A stretch of DNA of 63,999 nt, filler included, from Acidimicrobiia bacterium (GTDB taxonomy: Bacteria; Actinomycetota; Acidimicrobiia; Spongiisociales; CAZKJJ01), in the NCBI GenBank assembly GCA_046759765.1. It is 24 parts of 24 records of this genome, joined end to end, with 100 filler letters (N's around TTAATTAATTAA, not from the genome) between each part and the next. Parts side by side here need not be neighbours in the genome. Positions count along the whole stretch, not along the records: positions 49,338 to 51,779 come from JBHICV010000263.1; positions 51,880 to 54,314 come from JBHICV010000264.1; 22 more parts are not named here. One strand, given 5' to 3'. The stretch's first letter is position 1. Every line of letters starts with the position of its first letter. The notes beneath the pieces are model-generated. The model was not told where the DNA came from, did not search any database, and saw only the letters and a list, made by a program, of their open reading frames with translations. Below are positions 5,271-54,296 of the stretch, piece after piece. The translations under genes and the position numbers were made by a program.

Positions 5271-5346
5271 CCCCACCTTCCGGCAGGACCCCGGTCTCAT
5301 AACTACGTCGCAACGCCTCGTCGGGGTCGGCGAGCCCCCTCTTGAT

Positions 5347-6453: not shown

Positions 6454-6486
6454 TCGAGCGCGACCGGCTCTCGGTATTCTCGGTGC

Positions 6487-7143: not shown

Positions 7144-7517
7144 TGGCCGTCCGCGTATTGATAGTCGACGACCAGCCCCCCTTCCGAGACGCGGCGCGAA
7201 TGGTGGTGGAAATGACCCATGGGTTCGAAGTCATCGGGGAGGCGGAGTCCGGGGAAGAAGGCGTAGAGCTTGCCGCCACGCTGCGCCCCGATCTCGTACT
7301 GATGGATGTCTATCTGCCCGGCATCGACGGTCTCGAGGCCACACGTCAAATCACAAGTGCGGAAAGTCCGACTCGCGTCCTGGTCATGTCCACCCATGAG
7401 TCAGATGAGTTCGCCAAGGCCGCCATGGAGGCAGGTGCGATTGCCTTCGTTTCGAAGTCACAGTTCGGAATTGATGAACTCGCATCGGCGTGGGCTCAGG
7501 TCGCCGACGCCGGTTAA
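7143..7517 (+). CDS. Single-domain response regulator (REC)
   Basis: VLIVDD, LMDVYLPGIDGLEAT, K of FVSK. Confidence 0.92.
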   Translation: MAVRVLIVDDQPPFRDAARMVVEMTHGFEVIGEAESGEEGVELAATLRPDLVLMDVYLPGIDGLEATRQITSAESPTRVLVMSTHESDEFAKAAMEAGAIAFVSKSQFGIDELASAWAQVADAG

Positions 7518-8743
7518 CGAACAGGAACCCAGCCTCTTACGGTGGTGCCGCGACCCGGCCCAGAGTCGATCGTCAGCGCGCCTCCGGCGGCATCAAGGCG
7601 GTCGCTCATGCTCGGGATTCCGCTCCCTTCGCCGACTAAGTTCGGATCAAAGCCAGTGCCGTCGTCGACCACCTCGAACCCCAGCTGGTCCCCATCGTCG
7701 CGAAGCTGCACCGCTGCGGACGAAGCGTTGGCGTACTTGGCCGTGTTCTGTAGCGCCTCCAGAATCGAGAAGAACACGGCAGTCTCCACGTCCCTCGAGT
7801 AGCGGCCAACGGCCTCCGCTTCGATCGTGACGGGAAATGCCGCCTTGTCGGCTTCGGCTGACACGGCCGGTACCAGGCCATCGGCCTCGAGCAGCGACGG
7901 GTACACCCCCCGGGCGAAATCTCGTACCGATTGGATCGCCTTTCCCGCATCGTCTTCAAGCTGACCGAGCACCTCGAAGGACTGGTCGGCTTTGGCACTT
8001 TCGGCCTGAGCCTTCACCACCCCGAGCTTCACTTTGACCGCCACCAGGTCCTGCTGAGGACCCATATCGAGATCGCGTTCCAGATCGCGTCTTGCATCGT
8101 CCGCGGCCGCCAGTATGCGCTCCCGCGAGGAGGCGAGCTGGGTCACCTGATCGCGCAGGTCATCGGTCAGTCGCGCATTGCGCAGAGCCAGCCCCAGACC
8201 GCCAGCCAGGTTCTCGACGAGTTCCTGTTCGGTAGGCGCGATCGTTGCACCGCGACTCGCCACCAGCGACAACCCGCCGAGCAGCTCGCCGTCGTGCTCG
8301 ACCGGCACGGAGAAGGCAGCGTCGGGATCGCTCCACTCCCCGTCGCCTCTTATGGGGATTGCTTCGGCGGGGCGCTCGTCTTCGGGCCATCGGGCTGCAG
8401 GCCGTATCTCGCCCCCAACTGCGGTCCACAGGGTCGCCCCTGTTGCCCCGGTGCCGTCGACGATCAGGCGAGGAATTCGCTGCAGCATCTCGTCATCGCC
8501 TTCAGCAGTTGCCGCCCGTTGGGAGAATCGGGCCAAGACCTCATAGGGGGTGGCTCGCTCTCCGTATACCAGTCGGTTGGCCCAGCGTTGCAGCCGTGAC
8601 CTCACCGGTTCGAACAGGAGAGCTACTAACGCGGTGGCGCCGATCGCCAGAGCCAGATTGGGCTCATCGCCTCCACCGGCGAGGTTGCCCACGCCGACCA
8701 CAATTGCCACGTACACCGCGGTGATGAAGATGGCCAGGGCGCC
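7514..8743 (-). CDS. Membrane GAF-domain sensor histidine kinase, HisKA_3 type (5' truncated)
   Basis: RRDLERDLDMG (the H-box His appears replaced by Asp), EALQNTAKYA, DDGTGF, GRGTTV. Confidence 0.88.
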   Translation of the reverse strand, partial: GALAIFITAVYVAIVVGVGNLAGGGDEPNLALAIGATALVALLFEPVRSRLQRWANRLVYGERATPYEVLARFSQRAATAEGDDEMLQRIPRLIVDGTGATGATLWTAVGGEIRPAARWPEDERPAEAIPIRGDGEWSDPDAAFSVPVEHDGELLGGLSLVASRGATIAPTEQELVENLAGGLGLALRNARLTDDLRDQVTQLASSRERILAAADDARRDLERDLDMGPQQDLVAVKVKLGVVKAQAESAKADQSFEVLGQLEDDAGKAIQSVRDFARGVYPSLLEADGLVPAVSAEADKAAFPVTIEAEAVGRYSRDVETAVFFSILEALQNTAKYANASSAAVQLRDDGDQLGFEVVDDGTGFDPNLVGEGSGIPSMSDRLDAAGGALTIDSGPGRGTTVRGWVPVR

Positions 8744-8845: not shown

Positions 8846-11673
8846 GGAAAGATATGGAAACCACGGCTGGCAATCGTGCTGCTGATGGCCATGCTGTTAA
8901 TGTCGCTCGTGCCGATCCCGTTGGCATCGGCGACAGAAATAAGCGCCATCGCGCCCAGCTCAGGAGTCGTGGGTACACAAGTGTCCGTGTTTGGAGAGAT
9001 CGACACCCTTGGTGGACCATTCGAGGTCTTCTTTGACGGCGATTCGAAGGTAAGCGATTCGGCCGCAGCCAATTCGAGGAGCGTGTTCGCCCAGTTTAAC
9101 GTGCCCCCCGCCGTCGGAAGCGACGCCGGCGAGGACCACGTGATTCTGCTGGCAGACCTGACCACAGGGACGTCTTCGACCGCCATTTTCAGGGTCATTA
9201 CCGACCGTAGCATCGCTGCCTCTCCCGCCCGGATAGGAGGGGAAGGGTTGCCAACAGACATTACCGTGTCAGTGACTGGTGGAGTAGCCTCCACCGCGTA
9301 CGCGTTTGATGTTGCCGTCACCGACCCGGAGGGAGCGGCTCACGCCTCTCCCCTTGGTAGCTTCAGCTTCACGACCGGTCCGGCCGGTTCTGGAAGCGCG
9401 TTAGCCCCCTATCCTGGAGCCTTCTCGGCGAGCCCGAACACCGATTTCGTCGGCACCTACAGCATGGTCGCAGATGAGACTGCTCCCGGGGACATCCCAG
9501 GGGCCACGAGCGGGAGTTTCCGTGTGGGTCTGACGAACCTCGAGGTCTATGAGCGGTTTGACAAGGTGGAGATCCGGAGCTCCGGTTGGGCAGCCGGGGA
9601 GGAGGTCACCATCGACATCAAGAATTCGGCCGGGCAGTCCGTCACGATCGGAAACTCGCCTTATCCGGCCGACTTTGTGGCGGCCAGTGCCGTGTTCAAC
9701 GAGACAGACGCACTGCCGCGGGACTTCCCGACGGGAACCTACACCGTGACCGTGGTCAACTCAACGGGCACAGGCACGGTAAAGAGCCCGGCCGACATCC
9801 AGAACTTCGACGTTGTGGCTGACAACGACATCGCAGTCTCCGTAGTCGCGCAGCCTGCCACGTCATTCGAACGGACCGAAGAAGCCACGGCGAAGTTGAG
9901 CATCACCTACCCGGATGGCAGTCCCTTCGATCCAGACAGTCTCGGATCGATCAGCATCAGCGTGTTCAACGCCAGCGCGAAGATTGCGGACCTCTCCTTG
10001 AGCTCGGCAGACTTCAATGCGCTGACCGCGAGTGAATGGAACGCCACCTTCAAGATTCCAAAGGGGGCCGACCTCGAAGCACACAATCTGACGGCCGAGG
10101 CAGGTGCGGTGGTCGATCTGGACGGCAACAGCGGTCCGTCCGCCGACGTATCATCCAACGATTTCGATGTGGTGGCGGCTATCCTCGACGTCGAGATCAC
10201 CGGTCAATGGGACGCCGGCGACGAGTTCAACCGCACGGCAGCCGTCGCGATGAAGCTCAAGGTGCGCTACCCCGACCTGTCGTTCTATACCCCAGCTGAC
10301 CTCGGATCGCTCGCAGTAAACGTCACCCTCGTAGGTGTTGCATTCGACATCGCGAATCTGACGCTGGGCGCCAGCGATTTCGACGCGGCCACGAACAACT
10401 GGACGGCGGAGTGGATCATCCCGTTCGACGCGGCGTTGAGCGACGCGTACAACTTCCGCGTTAGAGCGGGCAAGGTCGCAGACGAGTTCGGAAACGACAA
10501 TACGGCCGACAGTATATCCAACGCATTCACCGTGGTCGAGGTCACCATACTGGTGCCCGAGATCGCAACTGATCGGGCCACCTACGAGCGGGAGGAGCTG
10601 GTGTTCGTGTTCTTCCGCGGCAGCTATCTCGACGGCAGCGCGGTGAGCACGGGGAGCGCGGACCTCACGCTGACGGATCCTGCCGGGGACTCGGCACCAC
10701 TGACAGCCACATTCTCGTCTGTTCGCAACCGATTCGAGGCGAGCTTCTTCCTGACGGTCCTTGACCCCATCGGGGTCTGGAGCGTGAGCATGGCCAGCTT
10801 CGCCCTCACGGATGACGCGGGCAACGATGGTCCGAACGTGACTCGTTCAACCACCTTCGAGGTCGTGAGGGCCGTCGAGGTCCTCCAGGTCGAAGCCGAC
10901 GCCGGGTCGCTCCACTTCCGGGGAGAGATCGCCGAGTTCTACGTCCTGACGGCGAACCGCGGCGCACCCATCGACGTAACCTTCGATGCCGCGGACCTCT
11001 ACCGGCCCGATGGCCTCGTTGAGCAGCTCAACGCAGTCCGGATCGCCGCCGGCATCTCTAGGATCCTCTATCCGATCCCCGCCGACGCGCCCGTGGGCAC
11101 CTACACCCTCGTGGTTCGCGTCAGCGCGATCTTTGAGCAGACGGAGGGCAAGGGGGTAACCATCGCATCGTTCCGGATCAGCGACACGCTGAGCGGCTTC
11201 GTCGTTGACATTAGTGCCGGCCTAGCACGCATCGAAACAGCCCAGGGCGAGATTGTGGTGGATCTCGCCGCCATCAACGCCCGACTCGCCAGCATTGAGA
11301 ACGGCATAGCAAACATCGAAACCGACGTGGGCCTCATCCAAGCGGACCTCGCCGCCATCAGGCCAGTGATCACCCAGATCAGCAGTGGCGTGGCCACTAT
11401 CCAGACCGACGTAGGCGAACTTCAGGTGGAAGTCGCCGCCCTCAACCCCATCGTGACCGAGATCCAGGGAGACATGGCCACAGTCAAGACCGATGTCGGG
11501 ACGCTCCGCGGACAAGTCACCGGGCTCGAGGGAGACATCGCCCTCATCCAGACGAACATAGGCGACATAAGGGCCGACATCTCGGGGGTCGCGGACCTTT
11601 CCCCGGCGGTCTCAAACATCCTGACCGTGCTGTACATCGTTACGGCACTGGCCCTGATCGCAGCCCTCGCCGC
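8846..11673 (+). CDS. Large secreted, C-terminally anchored surface protein with Ig-like repeats and coiled coil (both ends truncated)
   Basis: Signal peptide, repeated YPDGS/YLDGS beta modules, IxTDVG heptad repeats, C-terminal TM helix; frame is open from the contig start. Confidence 0.8.
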
Positions 11674-12571: not shown

Positions 12572-13321
12572 ATGACTGTTGTGTATTCGGTCGTGCTTCT
12601 ACGCCACGGAGTGTCCACCTGGAATGGAGAGAATCGTTTCACGGGTTGGACCGATGTCGGCCTGACCGAAGAAGGTATCGCGGAGGCCCGGGCCGCCGGA
12701 AAGCTGATGGCAGCCGAGGAGATTTCATTCGACGTCGTCCACACTTCGATCATGCGCAGGGCGGTTGAGACGACCTTCCATGTATTGGACGAGATGGATT
12801 TGCTCAGAGTTCGGGTCGTCAAGAATTGGCGTCTCAACGAACGTCACTACGGCGCTCTGCAAGGGCTCAACAAGAAGGAGACCGCTAGTGAACACGGCTC
12901 GGAGCAGGTGTATCTGTGGCGAAGAAGCTATGACGTCCGCCCTCCGGCCCTAGACCTGGACGACGAGCGGCACCCGCGGTTTGACCCCGTCTACCAAGGC
13001 CTTCCGCCCGAGGTCTTGCCGTCAACTGAGAGCCTGGAGGACGTCTATGACCGAGTCGTTCCCTGGTGGCAGGACCATGTCATCCCGGACCTGCAGGCGG
13101 GTCACACCGTTCTGATAAGCGCGCACGGCAATAGCCTGCGAGCGCTGGTAAAACACTTCGACCAAATCCCGGACGAGGAGATCGCGACCTTCAACATTCC
13201 CACCGGTATCCCGTTGCTTTACGAGCTCGACGCTGGCTTTCAGCCGGTCTCGAGTCGCTATCTGGGAGATACGGAGGCTGCCGCGGCTGCGGCCGAAGAG
13301 GTGGCTCGCCAGGCGGGATGA
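12572..13321 (+). CDS. gpmA: 2,3-bisphosphoglycerate-dependent phosphoglycerate mutase
   Basis: LRHG, NRFTGWTDV, LNERHYGALQG, AHGNSLR, NIPTGIP. Confidence 0.97.
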   Translation: MTVVYSVVLLRHGVSTWNGENRFTGWTDVGLTEEGIAEARAAGKLMAAEEISFDVVHTSIMRRAVETTFHVLDEMDLLRVRVVKNWRLNERHYGALQGLNKKETASEHGSEQVYLWRRSYDVRPPALDLDDERHPRFDPVYQGLPPEVLPSTESLEDVYDRVVPWWQDHVIPDLQAGHTVLISAHGNSLRALVKHFDQIPDEEIATFNIPTGIPLLYELDAGFQPVSSRYLGDTEAAAAAAEEVARQAG

Positions 13322-13661: not shown

Positions 13662-13748
13662 GTCGGAGTGGCGGAACTGGCAGACGCGCTAGGTTGAGGG
13701 CCTAGTGCCCTACTAATGGGCGTGAGGGTTCAAATCCCTCCTCCGACA
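13662..13748 (+). tRNA. tRNA-Leu(GAG)
   Basis: GTCGGAG/CTCCGAC acceptor, CTAGG-TTGAGGG-CCTAG anticodon arm, long variable arm, GTTCAAATC. Confidence 0.96.
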
Positions 13749-14210
13749 CCCTCGTTGACTACACGCGGCCGGGACTCGATGAGCACCCGGCCGTCTTGGT
13801 GGTAGGTGACCTCGATCCCCATTTCGGCATAGACGGCGGCCTTGTCGACGGGGTCGGCCTGGGCGAGGGTTGCGGTTATGTCCCGCAGGCTGATGACCAG
13901 CGCTCTGATGTCTTCCTTGGTGAGCCTGGTGGTGGGCTTCACACCCAGGAGGGTCTGGAGGCGCCGGCGCTCCTGTGTAGTTTCCGCGATCCATCGACCC
14001 ACCGTCGCCCGGGCGTCTGGTTCATTACGAACGATGGTTCGGTAAGCGTCGAGCTCCGAGTCGAGTTCAGCAATGCGCTTTCGGATCTCCTGGCGTCGGG
14101 CCTCATCGTCGGGATCCGGTTGAGCAGCGTCGGCGAGCGTTTGGCAGGTGCCGTCTAAGTGTTCGGTGTCGAAGAGCTCGGCCAGCCAGCTGTCGAGTCC
14201 GGGTAGCAGC
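13730..14210 (-). pseudogene. C-terminal fragment of a large serine recombinase reading into the tRNA-Leu 3' end
   Basis: Coiled coil + ADPVDKAAVYAEMGIEVTY + GVGGGI tail; homologous to 23177-23788. Confidence 0.8.
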
Positions 14211-20419: not shown

Positions 20420-21088
20420 TCATGGCCGCACCTCCGGCCGCGACCGTGCTTGGTCTATCAGCCGTCTCCACTCCCCCCGTCGGGGCAAGAACATCGGGAC
20501 CTGCTGGCGGTAGGCGAGGTACTCGGCGCTGAACCGCTCGATCATCCGGGCCTCCTCCTTCGTCGCCAGGCGGTAATACGCCCAGACGATCACCGGAAAC
20601 AAAGCCAGCGTCGGGATCGTCGGCCAGTGGATAAGTTGGCCGAAGACGGCTAGGAAGATGCCTGTGTACTGCGGGTGGCGAATGACCCCGTACAACCCGC
20701 CCGTGGCGAGCCGTTCCTCTTTTCGGGCCTGATAGACCTCTCGCCACCCCTCAACCAGCAACGAGATTCCGAAGAAGACGAACCCGTAGCCGACGATCAT
20801 CTCAACCATCGCGCCGAGGTCGCCCCAGCCAAAGAGAGTCGCCCAGAGGTGGCCGCTCGTGTGGAGCCACGGGATGTCGAGACCGAGGAACCCGCTCAGG
20901 AGGTAGATCGTCAGCGGAAAGCCATACATCTCGGCGTAAAGAGCGATGATGAAGGCCTGGATCAGTCCCGCCCGGCTCCACTCTCGCCATCCCCTGGGTG
21001 CCACGTAGCGGTAGACGAGCCACGAAGCGATCACCACCATGATGGCGGACAGCTCCCAGTAACCCGTCTGCGCGAGCGGATCGCTCAT
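20420..21088 (-). CDS. Isoprenylcysteine carboxyl methyltransferase family membrane protein
   Basis: ALYAEMYGFPLTIY, GLYGVIRHPQY, EE...F...Y...Y. Confidence 0.9.
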   Translation of the reverse strand: MSDPLAQTGYWELSAIMVVIASWLVYRYVAPRGWREWSRAGLIQAFIIALYAEMYGFPLTIYLLSGFLGLDIPWLHTSGHLWATLFGWGDLGAMVEMIVGYGFVFFGISLLVEGWREVYQARKEERLATGGLYGVIRHPQYTGIFLAVFGQLIHWPTIPTLALFPVIVWAYYRLATKEEARMIERFSAEYLAYRQQVPMFLPRRGEWRRLIDQARSRPEVRP

Positions 21089-22778: not shown

Positions 22779-22872
22779 ATGCCCGAACCCAAGTGGGCCG
22801 AGACCTCCTCATCCGCCCAGTAAGACGCTAGGTTGGGCGACGGAGCACCGCCGACGGCCGTGGCGGTGGAGC

Positions 22873-23011
22873 GGCTAGTGGATGAGCTGGCCAAAGACGG
22901 CCAGGAATATCGCGGTGTACTGCGGATGCCGCACCGCCCCTTAGAGACCGCCGGTGGCCAGGCGCCTCTCGCCCGGCTCGCACCATACACCTCCCACCAG
23001 CCCTCGATCAT
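22873..23011 (-). pseudogene. Degraded partial copy of the ICMT-family gene
   Basis: IEGWWEVY...RLATGGL*GAVRHPQYTAIFLAVFGQLIH*P, versus the intact paralog at 20420-21088. Confidence 0.8.
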
Positions 23012-25923: not shown

Positions 25924-26006
25924 ATAACGCCGCTCAACGTGGCTGCCCAGCCGGCCCAGGCCAAGCCTGTCGAATTCGTCCTCAGCTCACGGTCCGTAAT
26001 TTGCAT
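25924..26006 (-). CDS. 5' end of a membrane protein, paralog of 50457-51068
   Basis: MQITDRELRTNSTGLAWAGWAATLSGV vs MRVTDRELRTSLRGLAWAGWAATLSGV. Confidence 0.7.
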
Positions 26007-26074
26007 GTCTCTCCAACTTCCCCCGAGTAAGAGTGACTCCACACCGTTCCGAAATCGTTACGCAACCTCGCCCA

Positions 26075-26107
26075 CCCGCCCAGAACTATCAGGCACATAT
26101 GCGCTCC
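26075..26107 (+). repeat. dif-like site (degenerate)
   Basis: CCCGCCCA-gaac-TATCaGGCAC-ATATGCGCTCC. Confidence 0.65.
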
Positions 26108-26161
26108 CTCAGGTAGCTGTCTGAGGGCCGCCCATCCGGGCAGAGAATTTCCTGCTAACGC

Positions 26162-33896: not shown

Positions 33897-34172
33897 GGGC
33901 AAGGAGATGGCCGAACACGCCACCTTCACCATCGACACCGGAGTGCAGATCTACTTCTGCGACCCCAAGAGTCCCTGGCAGCGAGGCAGCAACGAGAACA
34001 CCAACGGCCTGCTCCGCCAATACCTCCCCAAAAAGACCGACATGGCTGTCCTCACCCAGGCTCAACTCGACGCTATCGCTCACTCCCCCAACACCCGGCC
34101 TCGACAAACCCTCGAATGGGAGACACCATTACGAGTACTCGCCCGGGCGTTGCAATGACCCCTTGAGACCGC
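33897..34172 (+). mobile_element. IS30 family element, 3' end (transposase C-terminus to 34158 and right end)
   Basis: [42 protein letters not shown]. Confidence 0.92.
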
Positions 34173-34393
34173 ACCCATTCTCGAGTGAGAACGCCCGAAC
34201 CACCTGCCCGCACCGAACGGCACATCGGCGCTCTTACATCGGTCCGTTTCTCGGAGGCAATCGGGCCGCACCGAATGCCGGTTATCGCGCAGTCAAGTGG
34301 GCGGATGGCTGGTGCGCCTGTGGGCGATCTGGACGCGGTGGATCCGACACCCGGGGCTGTCGGATGCTAGCTCCGGGGTAATCTCTAGCACCG

Positions 34394-35062: not shown

Positions 35063-35555
35063 CCGTCCCCATCGCAGGCCGCCTTGTCCCCCCGGGTTCG
35101 AGCGCCGATCATCCATTCTCGCGCCATATCGCCCACATGTCCGAGGCGAGCAGATCGGCACATCTAGGGCAGGCGCGGCAGCGAGGCGTTGGTCAGCTGG
35201 GGGGGCATTAACAGAGCCTGCTAAGTGAAAATCCCTCGCCGGCATTATCCGGTGTTGGTAGTGACGGTTTCCGACTCCTTCAGTCGGACTCTCAGCCGGG
35301 AAGACACCCAGCGCCCGTTCTCACCTTGCAGGCCCTGCGTCACGGGTATACCACGGAGGAGCCGGTTCTGTCCAGCCCTTGCTCCACCTCGCGAAATGAT
35401 CTCCAACCGGCCACTGGTGGCACGGCCGCCACCCCGGGGATAGTCAGTGGCCGTTAAGCGCACCGACCACGTATTCAGGAACGAGAACGAGCATCTCGGA
35501 GGGTGCTCGTGACCGGCACCTCGGCGCTCGCTGAGGAGCGGCGGTTCCCTAGCGG

Positions 35556-36008: not shown

Positions 36009-36499
36009 CGCCTTTCCCCTCGTCGAGGCAGCGTTGCGTATGGGAGGCAATGTACCAGTGCCGCCTGGCGGCGGCTTGGTCCAGGTAACCCACCTCAGGT
36101 AGGTGATAGTGGCCGCGGGTCTACGCGTCCGTCGCGCTCCGATCACCAGTTCTGCTTCGATATCGCCCGTTCCGCCTACCCGCTCGTGATTGGCACCTCG
36201 AGGGCGGATCACCGGTGGACCCGGGTAGCCAGCCTGTTGTGAAGATATCGAGGTGAACGCCTCGGAGGCACAGAAGAGAAATCAATGGCGTGATGACAAA
36301 CCGAGCCAGCCGACCGCGCCTGTACGTTCAGGGGGAAGCGCTAGGTCGCCGGCTCTCGCATCGGCTCCAGGTCGATCACATAGCGGGCCTCGCCTTCGGN
36401 NNNNNNNNNNNNNNNNNNNNNNNNNNNNNNNNNNNNNNNNNNNTTAATTAATTAANNNNNNNNNNNNNNNNNNNNNNNNNNNNNNNNNNNNNNNNNNNN

Positions 36500-39487: not shown

Positions 39488-39593
39488 CGCGGACAGCTCT
39501 CTGAGCAGGATCTGTAAGACAGCCACACTAGGTAGGTATAAGCCGACCACCACACCCTGCCACGTCCGTAGCGGTTCCTGCGACTCCGGCGTA

Positions 39594-39621
39594 ACCGCCA
39601 ATATCGGCACATATGCGCTGC
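39594..39621 (+). repeat. dif-like site (full)
   Basis: ACCGCCAATAT-CGGCAC-ATATGCGCTGC. Confidence 0.8.
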
Positions 39622-39669
39622 CTCGGATGGACCGCGCGAGGCCGCCCATATTGATTCTCTTATGTCAAG

Positions 39670-39843
39670 GTGCCGGCGGGTTGTGGTGGACAGGACTGGG
39701 ATGGGCCACACGGTTGTGGGCAGGCTCTTATAAGGTCACACCGCCCGCGAGAATGAGTTGGGGTGGGGTCGACAGGTCAATATGAAGACAATCCCCATGT
39801 TGGGATGTCAGCCGGTTGATCGGGTCAGACCCCACCCTGTTCT
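39670..39843. ncRNA. Candidate IS110 bridge RNA
   Basis: Perfect 10-bp stem 39761-39770/39828-39837 enclosing an internal loop with target-matching segments; second loop matches the donor end. Confidence 0.6.
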
Positions 39844-40896
39844 TCAGGCGGCTTGGGGCAGGTGTTTGTAGGTCTGTCGAGCCACGTAACGTTTGAGACA
39901 TCGCATGATCTCCGAAGTTGATTTCCCTTCGGCTCTCCGTCTGGTCACATAGCTTCGGGTTTGGGGGTGGCTTCTCATCCGGGTCAACACGATCCGGTAG
40001 AGGGCCGCGTTGGCGTGACGGTCTCCTCCCCGGTTCAACCGATAGCGAACCACCTTCCCTGAGGAGGCGGGGATAGGCGCAGTGCCGCATAGATGAGCCC
40101 AACCAGACTCTGAGCTGATCCGCTCAGGGTTGTCACCAGCTGCTACCAGCAGGCTGGCGGCGTTGTCCGGGCCGATCCCGTGCAGCTCCAACAGCGACGG
40201 TGCTGTCTGTTCGAGGAGATCGACGAGCATCCGGTCGATCTGTCCCATCTCTTGGTTGAGCGATCGGACACGTCGGGCCAGGTTCCGGATCACCAGATAG
40301 GTCGTATATATGACCGGATCTGGTGAGCGGGGTCGCATCGCAGCAGCCTCGGCGACGAGCCCGGTCTTATAGCGGTCTTTGAAACGGCTCCGGATCGGTT
40401 CCGGTGCGGTGAACACCAGATGACGGAGCTGGGTGAGGGACTGGATCCGCTGCTCCCGAGCTGAACGGCGAGCAACTAGCAGCACCCGCATCTGCTCCAC
40501 CGGTCCGTCCCGGCCCTTAGGGGTCACCGAAGCCGACCCCGACAGAGCCGCCCTGGCAGCTGCTACTGCATCGGTGGGATCCGACTTGCCCTTCCTCCGT
40601 CGCAGCTGCCGGTTAGGCCTATCAACCTCAACCGTCTCCACATCTTGGTTTAGGAGGAAACGGGCCAAACCGACCCCATAAGAACCGGTGCCCTCCACGC
40701 CTATACGGGACAGCGGACCGAACGACATCAGCCAGCCCACCAGCTCCTCAAACCCAGCCCGGTTAGTAGCGAACGACTCGATCCCCAACAGACCGCCGTT
40801 CTGATCCACCGCCGCAGCCACATGCACATCCGAATGGGTATCCACCCCACCCGTCACACTCACCACCGACATAACCGACCCTCCTGACATAGACAC
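39844..40896 (-). CDS. IS110 family transposase/recombinase
   Basis: GVDTH, GVEGTGSYG, KSDPTDA (DEDD); GIGP, PASSGK, RLNRGGDR, RCLKRYVAR. Confidence 0.96.
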   Translation of the reverse strand: MSMSGGSVMSVVSVTGGVDTHSDVHVAAAVDQNGGLLGIESFATNRAGFEELVGWLMSFGPLSRIGVEGTGSYGVGLARFLLNQDVETVEVDRPNRQLRRRKGKSDPTDAVAAARAALSGSASVTPKGRDGPVEQMRVLLVARRSAREQRIQSLTQLRHLVFTAPEPIRSRFKDRYKTGLVAEAAAMRPRSPDPVIYTTYLVIRNLARRVRSLNQEMGQIDRMLVDLLEQTAPSLLELHGIGPDNAASLLVAAGDNPERISSESGWAHLCGTAPIPASSGKVVRYRLNRGGDRHANAALYRIVLTRMRSHPQTRSYVTRRRAEGKSTSEIMRCLKRYVARQTYKHLPQAA

Positions 40897-41231
40897 AACG
40901 GCAGCACCATCCGATGCATACCAACGGTCTAGATCATCACTCCCAGCCGGTTAAGGGCTGGGTGGGGTACAGGCGTGGTCGGGGCAGCGGATGAGGTGGA
41001 GGCCGTCGATGTCTCCGTATGCCATCAGGGGGAGGCCGCTTGGACGGCCGTTGGGTTGCGCACTTTGTGGTGAGGGCACGGCCGCGTCGGAGTGGGCGCG
41101 GGCCACGCGTCGATGGTTCGATTCTCTCCGGGCGCGCGATGACACCTCTTGCGCTGCAAAGGGTCTCGAGGACTCAGCCGTTCGCGGTGGTAGGCGACTG
41201 TAACCCGGGGCGGATCCGATAGCCCAGAGGC

Positions 41232-49237: not shown

Positions 49238-49339
49238 NNNNNNNNNNNNNNNNNNNNNNNNNNNNNNNNNNNNNNNNNNNNTTAATTAATTAANNNNNNN
49301 NNNNNNNNNNNNNNNNNNNNNNNNNNNNNNNNNNNNNAT

Positions 49340-49462
49340 GAGCTCGGACCTCCCCCTAGCGATGAGCTTCTCGAACTCGTTGCTCTGGTGGCGCGACGTC
49401 GCCGGCAACGCGAAGAACTCGAACGTCAACAACCAGGCATCGGACTCGCCCTAGGCCGGTAG
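49340..49462 (+). CDS. MobF relaxase extreme C-terminus (paralog of 51880-52296)
   Basis: LGPPPSDELLELVA...ELERQQPGIGLALGR* matches the relaxase end in contig 20. Confidence 0.7.
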   Translation, partial: ELGPPPSDELLELVALVARRRRQREELERQQPGIGLALGR

Positions 49463-49489
49463 TCAAACCACAGAGGGTGGCTTACGAAT

Positions 49490-49517
49490 CAGCGAGAGAA
49501 TGCCGGTTATGGGCGTT
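49490..49517 (-). repeat. dif-like site, relaxase-adjacent type
   Basis: AACGCCCATAA-CCGGCA-TTCTCTCGCTG. Confidence 0.7.
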
Positions 49518-49547
49518 GGTCGCGAGCGAGCCGTATCGAGACGTTGA

Positions 49548-50051
49548 TCATTCAGTGACCGTGAAATCCCCTCCGAAGTGCGTGATCCTTTCCTCGATGA
49601 GGGCACAAGTCACAACGTGGACACCCGGCGGGAAGTGCCGTGTCGCCTCAAACGATTCCCCTGCCGGGAGACCTTGTCTGTAAAACGTCGGGTGAATTTC
49701 TGATGTCGGTTCCGCGGAGGGGTTCTCTGCAAGAGCGTCTGCAACTTCCTGGGCGGTTATGCCCTCGTCGAGCCGCCACAACCCGAGGGTGCTGCTCCCT
49801 GGACTCTCATTGTGCAGCACGATGTCTATGTTGCCCGCCGACAGTTCACTAGGCCCTTCATAAGTGCAGTTCTCGCCATCGAAGGTCACTTGTAGAACAA
49901 CAGGCGCAGAGGTTGTGGTCGTTTCTTGAACTGCCGTTGTGATCGTCGTTTCTTCTACCGTCGTTGTTGTGGTGTCTTCTGTCGTCCCATCAGAACAAGC
50001 GGCCAAGCCCAAGCCGAGGAGGATGCCACTAGCAACCAGACGTTTCTTCAT
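49548..50051 (-). CDS. Lipoprotein with Thr-rich linker and cupredoxin-like beta domain
   Basis: LAAC lipobox, TTTTT linker, VTFDGENCTYEGP...PPGVHVVTC. Confidence 0.8.
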   Translation of the reverse strand: MKKRLVASGILLGLGLAACSDGTTEDTTTTTVEETTITTAVQETTTTSAPVVLQVTFDGENCTYEGPSELSAGNIDIVLHNESPGSSTLGLWRLDEGITAQEVADALAENPSAEPTSEIHPTFYRQGLPAGESFEATRHFPPGVHVVTCALIEERITHFGGDFTVTE

Positions 50052-50084
50052 CGGCAGCGACCCTACCCTTTCCCAACATCGACG

Positions 50085-50112
50085 GCCGAACATATCGACA
50101 CATACGCGCTAC
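50085..50112 (+). repeat. dif-like site (variant)
   Basis: GCCGAACATAT-CGACAC-ATACGCGCTAC. Confidence 0.7.
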
Positions 50113-50432
50113 CCCGGGAGCTAGCCATAGCCGGTGGATCGGAATGTCGGATTACGGACATCCCGGTCTGCCAAGCACGTGCAGCAGTGTTGGTAGAAGT
50201 GAGGTGATCGATAATGAGCTGCAAGATCATCGTTCGTGAGGGTCGCCAGCTTCGTATCCACATCGGACATGTGATCTCCTGGGGCCCCGACACGGTTCAC
50301 CTGCTCATTACCAGTCCCCAAGACCGCGCCGGACAGACCGAGATCATCGATCTCTCAAGGATTGTCAAGTACGAGCGTCTGGCAGCCTGACGCCGCCCAC
50401 CGCGCTCAGAGGACAATGCAGCAGGACAGTCA

Positions 50433-50460
50433 CCCGCCCATATCGGCACATATGCGCTAG
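50433..50460 (+). repeat. dif-like site (full, consensus-like)
   Basis: CCCGCCCATAT-CGGCAC-ATATGCGCTAG; right arm overlaps the stop codon of the adjacent gene. Confidence 0.85.
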
Positions 50461-51068
50461 TCGGGGATCGTGGAGGGCTGTTTTCTCGGGGCGCGGATTA
50501 GGAGGATTCCGATTGCTATCCAGGTCAGCCCGAATGCGAAGGAAATCAGGGTGCCCTGCAGCCAGGGAAACGCTGTGAACAGCCCAAGACTGAGGGGGAT
50601 TCCTGATCCCCGAGGTAGGAGACCGACCAGGAGGGCTCTCCGTCCGTAGACGATCGTGGCCACTGCCCCAAGAGCTGGCCCCAAAGCAGTAAGGGCTGCG
50701 CCTGGAAATGAGATCGAGAGGGTGGTAGAACCCCACACGGTCAATCCCAGCGTCCACACGATTCCGATAGCGGCTCCTGTCCAGCCCACTATCGCTGCGT
50801 ACCGGCTGAGGGTGGCCACCCAACCGTGGCCAACTCGAACCAGTGCGAGGGCTAGCACGATCAGGGCAAGTGCGATCACTAGAGAGCGGGTGGAGTCGTA
50901 CCAGGAGAGCCCTAGGGGTGTCCGTTGGTAATCGAAAGAGGTGGTTCCGTGCGCAGCCAGGTAGTGGACCCATACCACCAACCAAATAACACCGCTCAAC
51001 GTGGCTGCCCAGCCGGCCCAGGCCAAACCTCTCAAACTCGTTCGCAGCTCGCGGTCCGTGACTCGCAT
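50457..51068 (-). CDS. Hypothetical multi-pass membrane protein
   Basis: About 6 TM segments; GGAG RBS; paralog start at 25924-26006. Confidence 0.75.
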   Translation of the reverse strand: MRVTDRELRTSLRGLAWAGWAATLSGVIWLVVWVHYLAAHGTTSFDYQRTPLGLSWYDSTRSLVIALALIVLALALVRVGHGWVATLSRYAAIVGWTGAAIGIVWTLGLTVWGSTTLSISFPGAALTALGPALGAVATIVYGRRALLVGLLPRGSGIPLSLGLFTAFPWLQGTLISFAFGLTWIAIGILLIRAPRKQPSTIPD

Positions 51069-51134
51069 GTCTCTCCAGCTGCCCGAGTAAGAGTAACTCC
51101 ACACCGTTCCGAAATCGTTACGCAACCTCACCCA

Positions 51135-51151
51135 CCCGCCCATATCGGCAC
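51135..51151 (+). repeat. dif-like half site
   Basis: CCCGCCCATAT-CGGCAC. Confidence 0.75.
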
Positions 51152-51304
51152 GTCGAGGATTGGGGTGGCATTGGCGGGAGCCACTCAGTGTGGCGGTCAA
51201 GACGGGCCGGGACCGAAGCGTTCGTCCAGTTGCTGCAGGGACCCGACTTCGCAGTGCGGTCGGGAGGAAGTGGGCTGTGATGCAGCCCGTTAGCCTCGAG
51301 ACCG

Positions 51305-51779
51305 ATGGGGTACGAGTCGCTGGGGCGGGTTCTCGCGGAGATGGCGGCAGACGATCAGGACCGTGCCGACATGGCGGAGGCAGTAGCCGATTGGCTCACC
51401 GCCGGCGAGGGGACGGAGACGATCGACCTCGCCAGCGTACAACGCTTTGTGTGGTACGAGCTGCCCGTGAAATGGATGGGGAACGGGGGTCTGCGCCGGC
51501 GGACGCTCGAGGCGGCCGCTGAGCTCTTCGACCGGCTCGGCATGGCTCGCTACGCGGAAGTGTGCCGCAGCCCGGTGACCTCCGAGATCCACCACGCCTA
51601 CGTCGAATCTCAGGAGAAGGGCATCAAGGCGTTTCAACGGGCGAACCGTCGCTCAGGCATCGATCCGCCCGATCTGGACAACTTTGTATGGGGCGACGTG
51701 ATGGGTCTTGAGGAGGCCGTCGCACGCCGCGCCGCCGAGCGGGCGCTGGAGGAGGCGATGACGGTGGGTCGGTTTGCCC
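51305..51779 (+). CDS. Hypothetical protein (3' truncated)
   Basis: Protein-like ORF (VQRFVWYELPVKW...SGIDPPD). Confidence 0.7.
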
Positions 51780-51879
51780 NNNNNNNNNNNNNNNNNNNNN
51801 NNNNNNNNNNNNNNNNNNNNNNNTTAATTAATTAANNNNNNNNNNNNNNNNNNNNNNNNNNNNNNNNNNNNNNNNNNNN

Positions 51880-52296
51880 GCCCTCACCGGCCACAAAGCC
51901 CAAGGCATCACCACCGGCCGCACCTTCACCGTCCTCGGCGGAACGGCAGACCGGGAATGGACCTATGTCGCGTTGAGCCGCGGCCGCCAAACCAACACCC
52001 TCTACCTCGACATCCCCCAACCCGACCAGCAACCATGCGTCCATGTCACCCATACGCCACCGAAGCACGGTCTCGATGGTCTCTCTGCCTCCCTGGGCCG
52101 AAGCGCAGCCCAAACCGCCGCTATCGACCACCTCGAAGGAGGGAGACCGTCGGTCACTGCTGAAATCGACACGCTCGGACCTCCCCCACCCAGCGACGAG
52201 CTCCTCGAACTCGTCGCCATGGTCACCCGACGCCGCGATCAACGCCACGAACTCGAACGTCAGCAACCAGGGATCGCGCTGGGCATCGGACGATAG
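51880..52296 (+). CDS. MobF/TrwC relaxase-helicase C-terminus (5' truncated)
   Basis: ALTGHKAQGIT and TYVALSRGRQTN (SF1B helicase motifs V/VI). Confidence 0.85.
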   Translation, partial: ALTGHKAQGITTGRTFTVLGGTADREWTYVALSRGRQTNTLYLDIPQPDQQPCVHVTHTPPKHGLDGLSASLGRSAAQTAAIDHLEGGRPSVTAEIDTLGPPPPSDELLELVAMVTRRRDQRHELERQQPGIALGIGR

Positions 52297-52323
52297 TCAG
52301 ACCACAAAGGGTGGCTTACGGAT

Positions 52324-52351
52324 CAGCGAGATAATGCCGGTTACTGAGCGG
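52324..52351 (-). repeat. dif-like site, relaxase-adjacent type
   Basis: CCGCTCAGTAA-CCGGCA-TTATCTCGCTG. Confidence 0.7.
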
Positions 52352-52552
52352 GTGATGGGACGCTTTGAAAGCTCAGGCCGCGCGCGTTATGTGCGCGCCC
52401 ACGCAACGCGCTCCACAGCGTCCAGTTCGGCGAGAGGGAGTCTGTAATCAACCTCATTTCCTGTCAACGTACCGAGATGATCGCGTCGTCTATCGCAGGG
52501 AAACTGAACATCCTCCGCGGGAAGTCGCGAAGACCGGATTCCGCTAAACGCC

Positions 52553-53191: not shown

Positions 53192-53362
53192 GTCTTCACC
53201 TCCTGAGATGATTATGGCTCGGGATCCGAGCCGATGTCACTGGGAAGGCGGGCCAGCGATCAGATCACCCGTTCTGAGCGATATCGCCCCTCACCACCAG
53301 GAGCGCATAGCGGCACATCATGTGTGCACGGGTTGGCGGACCTGTGCTCGCCGCGGCCGCGC

Positions 53363-53749: not shown

Positions 53750-53834
53750 CCAGCCTCCTGAGTTACCCGCTCCCAAAGCTCACGCTACCTGCCCATTATC
53801 GGCACCTCGGAGCTCGGCGGGAGAAGGCGGTTGG

Positions 53835-54296
53835 CTACTCGGGGTGGTGGATCGGTTCGAAAGGCTCGAGACCGCGACGGGCCAGCCTCGTAGCAGCTGG
53901 GTCGACCCCCCGACCGACGACCCCCAACGCTGGAGCGAAGTCGATCGGGTTGAAGTACAGCCGGAGGCTGGTCACCAGGTCGTCGCGGTAGGTGAGGATC
54001 TCGGCCCACTGACTCTCCAAGCGGCGCCCGTTGGCCAGGATGCCGGTCACTGCGAACTCTTCGATGAACGTGTCATCGTCGACGCTGATCACCCGAGGGG
54101 TGAACTCGATCCGCTCAACATGGGCGAACACCCAACCAAGCCATCGACGCACCCCCTCGTGCCCACGGAGACGAACCCCCAGCAGCTCGACGCTGCAATC
54201 GTCAGCGAAACACGCTACGACCCGGTCCAGGTCGCCAGCTTCGAGAGCCTCGTCGAGCTTCGAGGCGGCCTGACGAATCGACGCTTCGGACTGCAC
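53835..54296 (-). CDS. SnoaL/NTF2-like protein
   Basis: GDLDRVVACFADD...RGHEGVRRW...LRLYFN. Confidence 0.85.
   Translation of the reverse strand: MQSEASIRQAASKLDEALEAGDLDRVVACFADDCSVELLGVRLRGHEGVRRWLGWVFAHVERIEFTPRVISVDDDTFIEEFAVTGILANGRRLESQWAEILTYRDDLVTSLRLYFNPIDFAPALGVVGRGVDPAATRLARRGLEPFEPIHHPE

Follow-up and report, generated by a model that had tools for sequence, protein, structure and literature searches.

A conserved site behind the relaxase gene of tRNA-integrating mobilisable elements in Acidimicrobiia, a possible docking and exchange site for cargo genes

Two contigs from an Acidimicrobiia bacterium, both beginning inside MobF relaxase genes, may each hold the right-hand portion of a separate copy of a tRNA-integrating integrative and mobilisable element (IME), in which a site termed S0 would form a fixed junction between backbone and cargo, and in which S0, together with a family of type-1 repeats, would serve as docking or exchange sites for cargo modules. 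We assign a probability of about 0.45 to this explanation as a whole. It is compatible with the second option of the original prediction, an attI-like anchor for a cassette array riding on a mobilisable element. The arrangement looks like a mode of cargo-gene exchange that is as yet undescribed, no account of such a site having been found in the literature searched; if the explanation is true, whatever S0 captures would become mobilisable by conjugation. The window, i.e., the whole stretch of 63,999 nt that was analysed, is made up of 24 short contigs joined by N44-TTAATTAATTAA-N44 spacers, and was compared with 61 related relaxase loci from Acidimicrobiia MAGs (designated by L numbers).

Contig 19 (49338-51779) and contig 20 (51880-54314) carry the following features around S0, which is a site of type 2, oriented opposite to type 1:

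49340..49462, plus strand: 3' end of a MobF relaxase gene in contig 19, by translation and homology; 40 codons (49340-49459) and the stop codon (49460-62)
49463..49500, plus strand: conserved relaxase-distal arm of S0 in contig 19; an ACCAC-N5-GTGG palindrome, then GATCAGCGAGAGAA
49501..49506, plus strand: S0 core TGCCGG in contig 19, 41 nt after the stop
49499..49575, minus strand: type-2 site in contig 19, core CCGGCA, with accessory sequence of ~65 nt towards the cargo; 17.5 bits, E 5.5e-3 (sequence in training set), E 1.5e-4 with the window-trained model
51880..52296, plus strand: 3' end of a second MobF relaxase copy, contig 20; 138 codons (51880-52293) and the stop codon (52294-96)
52297..52340, plus strand: S0 arm and core TGCCGG (core 52335-52340) in contig 20, 41 nt after the stop
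52333..52403, minus strand: type-2 site in contig 20, core and accessory sequence; E 3.2e-7, 30.9 bits (in training set)

The translated tails end in ELERQQPGIGLALGR (contig 19) and ELERQQPGIALGIGR (contig 20), each followed by a stop. A protein search with the 138 residues of contig 20 returned 118 matches, the best of which (75% identical over 100% of the query) is a 927-aa protein with PF08751, PF13604, PF13245 and PF18335; several sources label the matches 'MobF family relaxase [Acidimicrobiia bacterium]'. The full-length homologue in L001 scores 233.7 bits against the NCBIfam MobF model (cut-off 100) and also passes the TrwC domain model. The protein matches and domain models bear out the relaxase identity proposed earlier, and the two fragments are, as judged from their sequence, homologous C-termini of predicted MobF relaxases of ~930 aa.

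The first 50 nt counted from the stop codon (49460-49509 and 52294-52343) are 46/50 identical, in agreement with the original prediction, whereas the last 120 coding nucleotides agree at 84/120, so that the non-coding block is better conserved than the gene. Similarity breaks off just past TGCCGG-TTA, 3 nt after the core, the 50 nt beyond the conserved block being 13/50 identical, and ORF calls and Pfam searches show that different small genes follow in the two contigs, as had been claimed. That homology between elements ends at the site holds for other pairs as well. Between L010 and L024, an identity of 95% extends over 12.86 kb and stops at 12863, with the core at 12854-59, and their cargoes have nothing in common; L036 and L027 part at 12855, which is also at the core; and L001 and L054 agree in the backbone (91%) and in the chromosomal DNA to either side, but not in the cargo.

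The site recurs behind homologous relaxases, where a search for it had been suggested. Of the 45 loci in which the 3' end is complete, 16 have an exact TGCCGG at 39-60 nt past the stop, as do 11 of the 21 with the same relaxase C-terminal tail. The arm of contig 19 aligns with the equivalent region of 16 loci. The core lies 51 nt after the stop in nine loci, 50 nt in three and 41 nt in both window contigs, and variant cores are found in L002, L038, L044 and L017, those of L044 and L017 without the terminal TG. S0 comprises a conserved arm, the core (TG)CCGG and, towards the cargo, accessory sequence of ~65 nt. Counting against docking, the exact core is missing from 29 of the 45 loci, and L027 has kept the arm, but has neither core nor type-1 sites.

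An unlikely alternative is that S0 is the oriT/nic region of the element, with the arm as relaxase recognition sequence and the core as nick site; homology would then end at nic through relaxase-mediated initiation and termination or through simple modular evolution, and the 68-nt type-1 repeats would be secondary nic-like sites or unrelated. MOBF oriTs (R388/TrwC) usually have palindromes 5' of the nick region, and so does the top strand of S0, where the invariant ACCAC-N5-GTGG and another small palindrome precede the core. The conservation of the non-coding block above that of the gene 3' end also speaks for an oriT, as does the occurrence of cargo arrays with two backbones (see below) that share the MobF relaxase only. 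However, the S0 palindrome shows no covariation (three predicted pairs, none with a compensatory change), the type-1 repeats have no consensus fold, and the sequence common to S0 and type 1 lies on opposite strands, so that nicks at S0 and at the array sites would be on different strands and initiation and termination between them would fail. In L015 and L022, moreover, the facing site sits 2.5-4.5 kb from the relaxase gene, and a stronger and more usual oriT candidate lies upstream, in the xis-orf118 intergenic region.

The backbone of the related loci has the order tRNA gene, tyrosine integrase, HTH_17 excisionase-like gene, orf118 and MobF relaxase. Integrase, HTH_17 gene and relaxase are present in 5/5 loci first annotated (L001, L010, L006, L027 and L018) and also in L054 and L057, and a tRNA gene adjoins int in L010, L024, L006, L027, L035, L036 and L018. 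Flanking direct repeats of 47-185 nt were found in eight of the 29 loci tested (L001, L054, L027, L036, L025, L034, L020 and L014), and are derived from tRNA genes where checked, namely tRNA-Val in L027 and L036 and tRNA-Phe in L001 and L054. A second backbone, DprA/ArdC-primase-relaxase, occurs in L015 and L022. The opposite end of an element with the first backbone lies in contig 2 of the window:

2964-3190, plus strand: conserved xis-orf118 intergenic region
3191-3463, plus strand: HTH_17 excisionase-like gene (xis)
3111-4628, plus strand: ORF of a tyrosine integrase, probable start near 3453
4618-4692, minus strand: tRNA-Val; 4618-4665 matches attR of L027 and L036

The xis-orf118 intergenic region is AT-rich, highly conserved (contig 2 included) and contains a 16-nt long-range inverted repeat.

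The integrase of their own and the tRNA-derived repeats identify these as tRNA-integrating mobilisable elements, not as IMEXs. The original prediction had the element end at the site; instead, the eight related loci are bounded by their direct repeats and the site is internal. Of two observations that it had itself set against this claim, tRNA att repeats are found, and homology continuing past the site is not. Our data therefore do not lend support to an IMEX in the strict sense, i.e., a relaxase element that integrates at a dif-type site via host XerCD and ends there, and this extremely improbable reading was rejected. The site does resemble a 28-bp Xer site in its architecture, with 11-nt AT-rich arms and inner ATAA/TTAT around a 6-nt spacer, and in this respect 'dif-like' is apt, but not with respect to sequence: identity to the Frankia alni dif (PMC3025954) is 15/28 and 14/28, 84 28-mers in the window score at least 15 against the same dif, and the likeness to actinobacterial dif is at chance level. 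The profile scores of the element integrases are far below the XerC, XerD and IntI cut-offs, the best integron-integrase score being 53.9 bits (contig-2 integrase), with 43.5 for L010, against a cut-off of 265. Int and Xis are encoded by the elements, and there are many sites per genome.

The cargo, hypervariable and located before attR, consists of 0.35-5 kb modules of one or few genes with type-1 repeats between them. The type-1 repeat has a 68-nt consensus and 43 members (iterated nhmmer profile, converged), and contains three direct GAT(C/A)-type boxes and a CGGCA core. Cargo features in the window are as follows:

49548..50051, minus strand: predicted lipoprotein gene (MKKRLVASGILLGLGLAACSDG...), first cargo of contig 19, convergent with the relaxase gene
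50041..50121, plus strand: weak type-1 site, core CGACAC (50096-50101); E 0.15, missed by the loci-only model
50214..50390, plus strand: 58-aa ORF of no family, contig 19
50385..50468, plus strand: type-1 site with palindromic arms, GCCCATAT-CGGCAC-ATATGCGC, core 50444-50449; E 1.7e-7, window-trained
50457..51068, minus strand: membrane-protein gene, contig 19; a paralogous copy opens contig 10
51079..51173, plus strand: type-1 site, contig 19, core CGGCAC (51146-51151); 14.7 bits with the loci-only model against a shuffle maximum of 12.5
51305..51779, plus strand: partial ORF of 158 aa, no family, contig 19
52553..53191, minus strand: DUF4386 membrane protein, cargo of contig 20
53249..53336, plus strand: type-1 site, core 53311-53316; E 1.8e-8, loci-only 22.0 bits
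53363..53776, minus strand: cupin, cargo of contig 20
53727..53829, plus strand: weak type-1 site, core 53800-53805; E 3.9e-5 window-trained, loci-only 7.4 bits, not above shuffles
53835..54296, minus strand: SnoaL-like, cargo of contig 20
34172..36203, plus strand: best array of the window, contig 13; type-1 sites 34172-34232, 35105-35168, 35463-35526 and 36139-36203
25924..26118, plus strand: second copy of the contig-19 membrane-gene module with a type-1 site, contig 10; E 8.7e-6, different DNA after

Site-flanked small genes past the relaxase, as described earlier for the two contigs, are thus present in the window and in related loci. The contig-19 lipoprotein has no Pfam match and is unrelated to the first cargo gene of L001. 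The type-1 sites of contig 13 score 22-35 bits under the loci-only model. They stand between a GDSL lipase gene, a 72-aa ORF and a polyketide-cyclase-like gene, and are faced by a weak type-2 site at 34273-34350(-). A site reported previously at 34265-34292(-) falls within this weak match (34350-34273, E 0.23, window-trained), but is missed by the type-2 model at E<=0.1, and another, near 35239, is a CGGCAT at 35240 that lacks accessory sequence.

The repeat is conserved across genomes. A model built from the loci only recovers six window sites with 14.7-35.4 bits, the best score in 20 dinucleotide shuffles being 12.5 bits, and in the reverse test a window-only model finds sites in loci, e.g., L046 (1e-4) and L054 (3e-4). 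Against docking, the loci-only model exceeds the shuffle maximum at one of the three downstream contig-19 sites; at 50385..50468 the core part alone is matched, with 10.7 bits. Among the 33 matches in the loci (E<=1e-4), 31 are oriented with the relaxase gene and two opposite, whichever way the neighbouring genes point, which argues against a role as promoter or terminator. Thirteen matches lie inside att-delimited elements (98 kb) and none outside (83 kb), and 19/33 are intergenic, although called ORFs cover 81% of the loci; 11/33 are more than half covered by crude ORF calls, which counts against docking. The membrane-gene module shared by contigs 10 and 19 (87-97%) loses homology at ...CCCGCCCA, just 5' of the type-1 core. 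An all-against-all comparison of site flanks in the loci gave no further module in two contexts, again a point against docking, and no conserved proteins accompany the arrays beyond orf118.

Could the repeats be passive or regulatory (REP-like, operator, terminator), with break-points that merely reflect the variable cargo of an ordinary IME? The unassigned enzyme, the lack of observed excised forms and the single module in two contexts (contigs 10 and 19) would agree with this, as would the choice of repeated sequences as targets by IS110-family elements in the portions of PMC11187229 and PMC11208160 that concern it. Five independent break-points within a few bases of a core, the strict orientation bias, its constancy despite the direction of neighbouring genes, and the confinement of sites to delimited elements nevertheless make it decidedly unlikely.

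Type-2 sites are also found away from relaxase genes, at 14290-14353 in L036/L031, at 16972-17034 in L054 and in contigs 13 and 15, and each of them faces a type-1 site at a distance of 20-90 nt. In L055 and contig 15, IS110-family elements interrupt type-2 sites precisely at ATA|TG|CCGG, in the latter between ...GCCCATA and CCGGTTA (about 39650-40946):

39592..40946, plus strand: contig 15; type-1 core 39592-39617, followed by a type-2 site into which an IS110-family element has inserted

Insertion at the same point in both marks the type-2 site as a conserved and repeatedly targeted sequence.

The facing pairs resemble abutting elements, and are among the observations that would be expected if the cargo modules were transposon-like and homed to a fixed site behind the relaxase gene. 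Their ~65-nt inverted ends, each with several transposase-binding boxes, would be type 2 on the left (5'-TGCCGG...) and type 1 on the right (...CGGCA-3'), and insertion would occur at a fixed distance past the conserved relaxase 3' end and also next to where earlier modules end. In contigs 19 and 20, L001 and L006, the unit that follows S0 indeed lies between inverted sites with the cores outermost, and the same is true of units in contig 13 (34273-35168), L036 (14290-15617) and L054 (16972-18220); each end contains three direct GAT(C/A) boxes; the offset from stop to core is fixed; and L027, with the arm and neither core nor module, looks as an empty or decayed target would. We nonetheless regard such transposition as rather unlikely. 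The 33 type-1 matches (E<=1e-4) compare with three distinct relaxase-distant type-2 matches (L031/L036, L054 and L055), to which the sites in contigs 13 and 15, found by eye, are additional; right ends thus far outnumber left ends, leaving arrays of several co-oriented type-1 sites without partners. Furthermore, no transposase is conserved with the modules, target-site duplications are not seen, and the cores of L017 and L044 lack the terminal TG.

In the docking reading, S0 and the type-1 repeats would be double-stranded recombination sites, S0 being the anchor of the element itself, and conservative site-specific recombination, in the core or beside it, would be the means by which cargo modules dock, are lost and are exchanged. 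The missing conserved fold fits a protein-bound duplex site. We infer recombination at the sites and, as candidate enzymes in order of preference, a tyrosine recombinase acting in trans (host Xer-type or element Int), a transposase-like enzyme, which would recognise the multi-box ends, and the relaxase. The break-points fit a crossover inside the core and a transposon terminus at its edge alike, because the first bases are conserved in all sites. Several points count against docking: no recombinase can be assigned, the element integrases acting at tRNA sites and scoring far below the Xer and IntI cut-offs; neither excised circles nor empty sites were observed; and S0 is inverted relative to the array, so that the observed order is not the one expected from simple insertion of the attI x attC type at this site. 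For the first module, which is flanked by inverted sites, inversion is predicted and not excision.

Tn7 homes to attTn7, a fixed point downstream of glmS. Similarly, the cargo described here begins at a fixed distance past the stop of a conserved gene, in one orientation, and its ends have several direct boxes; a TnsB/TniA-type transposase was not found, however, many right ends are unpaired and target duplication is not seen. TrwC of R388 catalyses recombination between two oriT copies, and here too a MOBF relaxase gene adjoins a conserved non-coding site at which related elements diverge, but a covarying hairpin was not found, and S0 and the array sites are on opposite strands.

IS1111-type elements target integron attC sites. 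Integrons, in the sections of PMC4889954 drawn on here, share with our elements a unidirectional array of short gene modules with 60-70-nt sites between them, a special first site joined to a conserved platform, and break-points that fall on a short core close to one end of each site; the targeting of sites by IS110/IS1111-type elements is a further likeness, according to part of PMC11187229. In contrast to integrons, there is no IntI (53.9 bits at best), the sites are conserved in sequence and not in fold, genes point in either direction, the orientation of the anchor site is opposite to that of the array, and an IME relaxase gene serves as the platform.

IMEs in which integrase, excisionase and relaxase make up a module have been reviewed for streptococci and others (PMC5704250, PMC5357655). 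With the IMEs in the excerpts of these reviews, the present elements have in common that they are small (6-16 kb) and lie between direct repeats of tRNA 3' ends, and that they have a tyrosine integrase, an HTH excisionase-like gene and a single relaxase; mating-pore genes are absent from the Pfam matches to annotated ORFs of L001 and L054 and to the cargo ORFs of L036. They differ from those excerpts in that the relaxase is a large MOBF relaxase-helicase and that repeat-punctuated cargo starts from a fixed site behind it, for which no IME counterpart was found in the literature searched. The IMEXs, including the gonococcal genetic island with its own relaxase, are comparable, in what PMC9226527 and PMC6736028 relate in part, as relaxase islands adjoining a site of Xer-like architecture; they differ from our elements, which have their own integrase, tRNA att sites and an internal site in many copies. 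Unlike the Acinetobacter pdif/dif modules in the relevant portions of PMC12907356, PMC5790767 and PMC7399989, most sites here are direct repeats and keep to one orientation instead of alternating, each site has conserved accessory boxes (~45 nt) on one side, and identity to actinobacterial dif is not significant. With those same portions they agree in gene modules that lack a recombinase of their own and are carried on transferable elements, in short bounding sites with AT-rich inner arms and a 6-nt spacer, in the placement of some modules between inverted sites, and, on the partial account of PMC10132070, in the targeting of sites by insertion sequences.

The finding concerns the initial 180 nt of contig 19 (49338-51779) and the initial 470 nt of contig 20 (51880-54314), two of the 24 window contigs, which are 2.2–2.9 kb long with ~62% G+C and are joined by spacers of the form N44-TTAATTAATTAA-N44. 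Both contigs open in the middle of an open reading frame, and a junction site, here called S0, lies just 3' of each frame:

49460-49462, contig 19: stop codon of the relaxase gene, C-terminus ...ELERQQPGIGLALGR
49501-49506, contig 19: S0 core TGCCGG, 41 nt 3' of the stop
52294-52296, contig 20: stop codon of the relaxase gene, C-terminus ...ELERQQPGIALGIGR
52335-52340, contig 20: S0 core TGCCGG, 41 nt 3' of the stop

The two contigs agree at 84/120 positions in the final 120 coding nucleotides, at 46/50 from the stop codon onward, and at 13/50 in the 50 nt beyond this conserved block; identity stops right past TGCCGG-TTA, 3 nt beyond the core. The alignment is thus in agreement with the original prediction, in which homologous relaxase C-termini are followed by 46/50 identical nucleotides and similarity ends just past a second type of site. 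The MobF assignment also appears right, and was obtained through homologues: the window fragments are the last 40 and 138 residues, without a Pfam match of their own, the catalytic part of either copy not being on contigs 19 and 20. A search with the 138-aa fragment returned 118 longer proteins, the top match being 75% identical across the full fragment length, and the fragments align over 100% of their length to the C-termini of these relaxases. Nearly all full-length matches are 914–944 aa long, with TrwC (PF08751), AAA_30 (PF13604), AAA_19 (PF13245) and SH3_13 (PF18335) domains. Several matches carry the source name "MobF family relaxase [Acidimicrobiia bacterium]", and the homologue in locus L001 passes the NCBIfam MobF model (233.7 bits, cut-off 100). 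Among plasmids, the best relaxase matches are MobF genes of Corynebacterium and Mycobacterium at 31–32% identity, with none closer.

A single scan of GTDB representative genomes (one genome per species) with an alignment of 39 full-length homologues yielded 61 related loci, labelled L001, L010 and so on, each with its own coordinates. Close relatives (49–83% identity) account for 58 of them, mostly from MAGs whose titles name Acidimicrobiia or Actinomycetota, a few having other titles; the remaining three, from Geobacter, Geomonas and Planctomycetaceae, are distant (25–29%). Eleven assemblies hold 2–4 loci each, which makes multiple copies per genome the usual case. The relaxase stop lies within the locus in 45 of the 47 loci inspected, and when the motif was searched for downstream of these homologous relaxases, exact TGCCGG recurred 39–60 nt past the stop in 16 of the 45 (11/21 loci with the window-type C-terminal tail versus 5/24 others). 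Variant S0 cores are found in L002, L038, L044 and L017, and L054 is truncated. The stretch between stop and core, the arm, is conserved as ACCAC-N5-GTGG ... CCCAATATCTGGGATCAG ... ATAw; L027 keeps the arm, with the core missing.

Pfam and NCBIfam scans of the flanks revealed a constant backbone, which comprises the relaxase gene and the following:

tyrosine integrase, ~382 aa
HTH_17 excisionase-like protein, 63-178 aa
orf118, a conserved 118-aa ORF

The integrase and HTH_17 genes are present in 7/7 loci annotated on that side (L001, L010, L006, L027, L018, L054, L057), and a tRNA gene adjoins the integrase gene in seven loci, i.e., tRNA-SeC in L010 and L024, tRNA-Ala in L006, tRNA-Val in L027, L035 and L036, and tRNA-Arg in L018. 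Direct repeats of 47–185 nt bracket the whole region in 8/29 loci tested:

L001: repeat of 56 nt, element of 13 kb
L054: repeat of 48 nt
L027: repeat of 49 nt, element of 12.3 kb
L036: repeat of 48 nt, element of 10.6 kb
L025: repeat of 48 nt
L034: repeat of 185 nt
L020: repeat of 47 nt, element of 16 kb
L014: repeat of 80 nt, element of 6.3 kb

In the four of these eight loci that were checked for a tRNA origin, the repeats overlap a tRNA gene, namely tRNA-Val (L027, L036) or tRNA-Phe (L001, L054). Among the Pfam matches of the ORFs scanned in the att-delimited L001 and L054, and of the cargo ORFs of L036, there is no T4SS, coupling-protein or mating-pore domain. With an integrase that adjoins a tRNA gene, an excision module of their own, flanking att repeats, and a relaxase without mating-pore genes among the ORFs scanned, the elements can be classed as tRNA-integrating IMEs. 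The original prediction had instead described IMEX-like elements that end at a dif-like site. This is not borne out, since an IMEX would integrate at dif and lack its own recombinase, whereas these elements have flanks of direct repeats, tRNA-derived in L027, L036, L001 and L054, and encode a tyrosine integrase together with an excisionase-like protein. The backbone is that of an ordinary IME, though new for the class Acidimicrobiia; no account of such arrays or of Acidimicrobiia IMEs turned up in full-text literature searches.

In the window, contig 2 carries a left end of this kind:

2964-3190: conserved intergenic region (minus strand)
3191-3463: xis
4628: end of int
4618-4692: tRNA-Val

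Segment 4618-4665 matches the attR of L027 and L036, and we infer a physical link of contig 2 to contigs 19 and 20. A second backbone type, seen in L015 and L022, has DprA and ArdC-primase genes before the relaxase; here the array is on the opposite side, and its core again faces the backbone. DprA and the fusion of ArdC-N with a primase (Toprim), both upstream of the relaxase gene, are at 5704-7653 in L015 and at 6512-9539 in L022.

Pairwise comparisons of loci place homology break-points at the cores. L010 and L024 are 95% identical over 12.86 kb, chromosomal genes included; identity stops at 12863, next to the core at 12854-12859, and there is no common sequence downstream. In L001 and L054, both chromosomal flanks are 77–82% and the backbone 91% identical, and none of the ~8 kb of cargo is held in common. 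L036 and L027 part at 12855 and are alike again only in the final 0.8 kb before attR. S0 is a junction inside the element, with backbone on one side and cargo on the other, and not its end as had been proposed. On the cargo side, contigs 19 and 10 share a membrane-protein module (87–97% identity), which stops at ...CCCGCCCA, just 5' of a CGGCAC core, with different DNA beyond. This is the only module seen in two contexts; a search for such cases among the loci gave just the L031/L036 pair, whose members are near-identical, and partial similarities between a few genes, and the initial cargo proteins of contig 19 and L001 show no relationship.

The cargo is punctuated by a second conserved feature, a repeat family termed type 1. 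Seeds from direct-repeat finding and a core scan were iterated with an nhmmer profile over window and loci, which converged on 43 members and the 68-nt consensus GCAGATCACCAGATCTGGAGCGATAACGCCCATTTCGCCGAGTGCCCCAGATCGGCACGTCGGCGTG. A model from the window sites alone finds type-1 sites in the loci, and conversely a loci-only model scores six window sites at 14.7–35.4 bits, compared with a maximum of 12.5 in 20 dinucleotide shuffles. Within the window, the best sites are those of contig 13, and a single clear one is in contig 20; for contig 19 there are a marginal site and core-only matches, so that its own site evidence is weaker than that from contigs 13 and 20 or from the related loci. In the loci (E ≤ 1e-4), 31 sites are oriented along the relaxase gene and 2 opposite, with 438–4855 nt between successive sites; the eight delimited elements contain 13 sites in 98 kb, against none in the 83 kb outside them, and 19/33 fall between ORFs when these are called crudely, the calls covering 81% of the DNA. 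Rfam at gathering thresholds on the whole window returned two tRNAs only and no family for the repeat, and a distant-mode search of 72,556 plasmids with a type-1 site gave five partial matches (E 0.02–0.06), taken as chance. A further conserved protein beside the arrays was sought, and orf118 alone was found.

Read on the minus strand, S0 presents its boxes in the type-1 order, CAGATCAC or CATAACAC, then GCGATATCG, then GAwC-CGGCA, and by its sequence it is a second type of the same site. Because of a slight difference in box spacing, S0 escapes detection by the type-1 profile (7.4 bits or less), and a separate 74-nt type-2 profile was therefore built. In 15 loci, as well as in contigs 19 and 20, it matches the position next to the relaxase gene; most of these sites are in its training set. 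Its matches outside that set are:

L003 and L044: relaxase-adjacent
L031/L036, 14290-14353: elsewhere
L054, 16972-17034: elsewhere
L055, 14206-14269: elsewhere

The array sites of L031/L036 and L054 each face a type-1 site 20–90 nt off, and a weak site in contig 13 (34273-34350) likewise faces one. On the relaxase strand the order is relaxase, S0 (backward), first module and type-1 sites (forward), and the first module is hence bracketed by inverted sites. IS110-family (RNA-guided DEDD) elements recur in the arrays (contig 15, 39650-40946; L055, 12833-14205; L010, 12993-14120; L057, 7479-8585), the L055 and contig 15 copies being 73% identical. These two copies interrupt a type-2 site exactly at ATA|TG|CCGG, and this split suggests an IS lineage specialised on the site.

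From the conserved junction, the confined, co-oriented repeat family and the break-points at the cores, which sequence comparison establishes, we infer that cargo modules may be swapped by site-specific exchange, for which S0 would anchor the element. A duplex site in which several direct boxes stand next to a short core is compatible with either a conservative recombinase with accessory binding sites or transposon ends. Type-1 sites in excess of possible partners and the missing transposase favor the recombinase and count against transposon ends; the inverted S0 and the modules bracketed by inverted sites point the other way. Host Xer may be the enzyme, but the likeness of S0 to dif is at chance level: S0 agrees with the Frankia alni dif, as quoted from PMC3025954 and possibly unlike the dif of these genomes, at 15/28 and 14/28 positions, and 84 window 28-mers reach at least 15.

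S0 may also be an oriT, although this is less likely. Small invariant palindromes are present in it, but they lack covariation (folding the arms of 18 sequences gave three invariant pairs and no compensatory change), and the sequence common to S0 and the type-1 sites is on opposite strands. Furthermore, a more typical oriT candidate lies upstream, in the xis-orf118 intergenic region (L001, 9440-9660, and homologues; window, 2964-3190). Rich in AT and strongly conserved from locus to locus, this region contains a long-range inverted repeat of 16 nt, GAGTGTCAGCAGCCCT / AGGGCTACTGACACTC, with its halves ~150 nt apart, and is a candidate oriT and/or divergent promoter region.

Integrons and the dif modules of Acinetobacter are the two known routes by which bacteria maintain arrays of small exchangeable gene modules, and repeat-punctuated cargo behind a fixed site would do the same. 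As in an integron, a unidirectional array (31/33 sites co-oriented) stands behind a platform site. Unlike in an integron, there is no IntI: the element integrases, encoded ~3.6 kb from S0, score 35–54 bits on the integron-integrase model (cut-off 265), and on the XerC/XerD models they score 46–74 bits (cut-offs ~330). Moreover, attC sites are variable in sequence and conserve an imperfect-palindrome fold, whereas type-1 sites are conserved in sequence, and RNAalifold predicted no pairs and no consensus fold for 35 of them. On consensus folding of type-1 sites and S0 arms, an attC-like or hairpin-defined site is rejected. In contrast to Acinetobacter dif modules, inverted sites flank only the first unit and three others, the remainder being direct repeats, and there are no alternating Xer sites and no more than chance identity to the Frankia dif. 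There is a substantial chance that the system is distinct. The most far-reaching reading, to which we assign a probability of about one in three, is an undescribed gene-capture platform, neither integron nor Xer/dif, on mobilisable and conjugative elements of Acidimicrobiia. Each of its modules would lie between duplex sites of ~65 nt that have three GAT(C/A) boxes and a CGGCA core, and the modules would dock and be shuffled at a dedicated anchor that follows the MobF relaxase gene at a fixed distance. This would be a new role for the enzyme, which could be a tyrosine recombinase acting in trans, an unrecognised transposase, or the relaxase.

If this is true, one small element could sample an open-ended pool of one-gene modules and pass them on by conjugation; cassette-type gene capture would have evolved more than once, and a third arrangement, with a direct tie to a conjugative relaxase, would exist in a large and uncultured class of actinobacteria. 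It would also account for genome fragmentation at such regions: the window contigs (2–3 kb) break there, and the long contigs of L010 and L024 end a few kilobases past the relaxase. New pairs of site and recombinase would become available for study. The analysis also corrects the IMEX reading, and the two site profiles are a concrete means of finding such arrays elsewhere.

Several further observations concern cargo and neighboring elements. In L057, a cargo gene that immediately precedes the first type-1 site (gene at 5090-5908) matches aminoglycoside 3-N-acetyltransferase (PF02522, E 6e-51), such arrays therefore being able to carry resistance-type genes; other cargo genes encode mostly unknown small proteins, hydrolases, GNAT acetyltransferases and sigma factors. 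L029 holds, between two type-1 sites (5174-8112), two neighboring tyrosine recombinase genes (435 and 288 aa) and a small ORF, which resembles an insertion of the recombinase-in-trio type, and its relaxase is split by a Mutator-family transposase gene (2485-3831). The final 59 nt of contig 10 (28460-28518), a contig that also bears type-1 sites and the module in common with contig 19, are a 98% repeat of 13690-13748, the 3' part of the contig 5 tRNA-Leu (13662-13750), and resemble an attR or attL that belongs to another tRNA-integrated element. Contig 1 encodes, on its minus strand (101-1756), a large serine recombinase that is complete, with Resolvase, Recombinase and zinc-ribbon domains; it marks a further integrative element of this genome. 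Contig 4 contains 84-nt tandem repeats (11218-11553; three to four copies, 64–74% identical) within a partial ORF for a surface protein, which exceeds 942 aa, matches MG2 and Big_12, and has segments resembling coiled coils. In contig 8, a 93-nt direct repeat (20621-20713 and 22872-22964; 76%) lies in the 5' regions of two ORFs, one of them a PEMT/ICMT-type methyltransferase, and the two are therefore probably paralogous genes.
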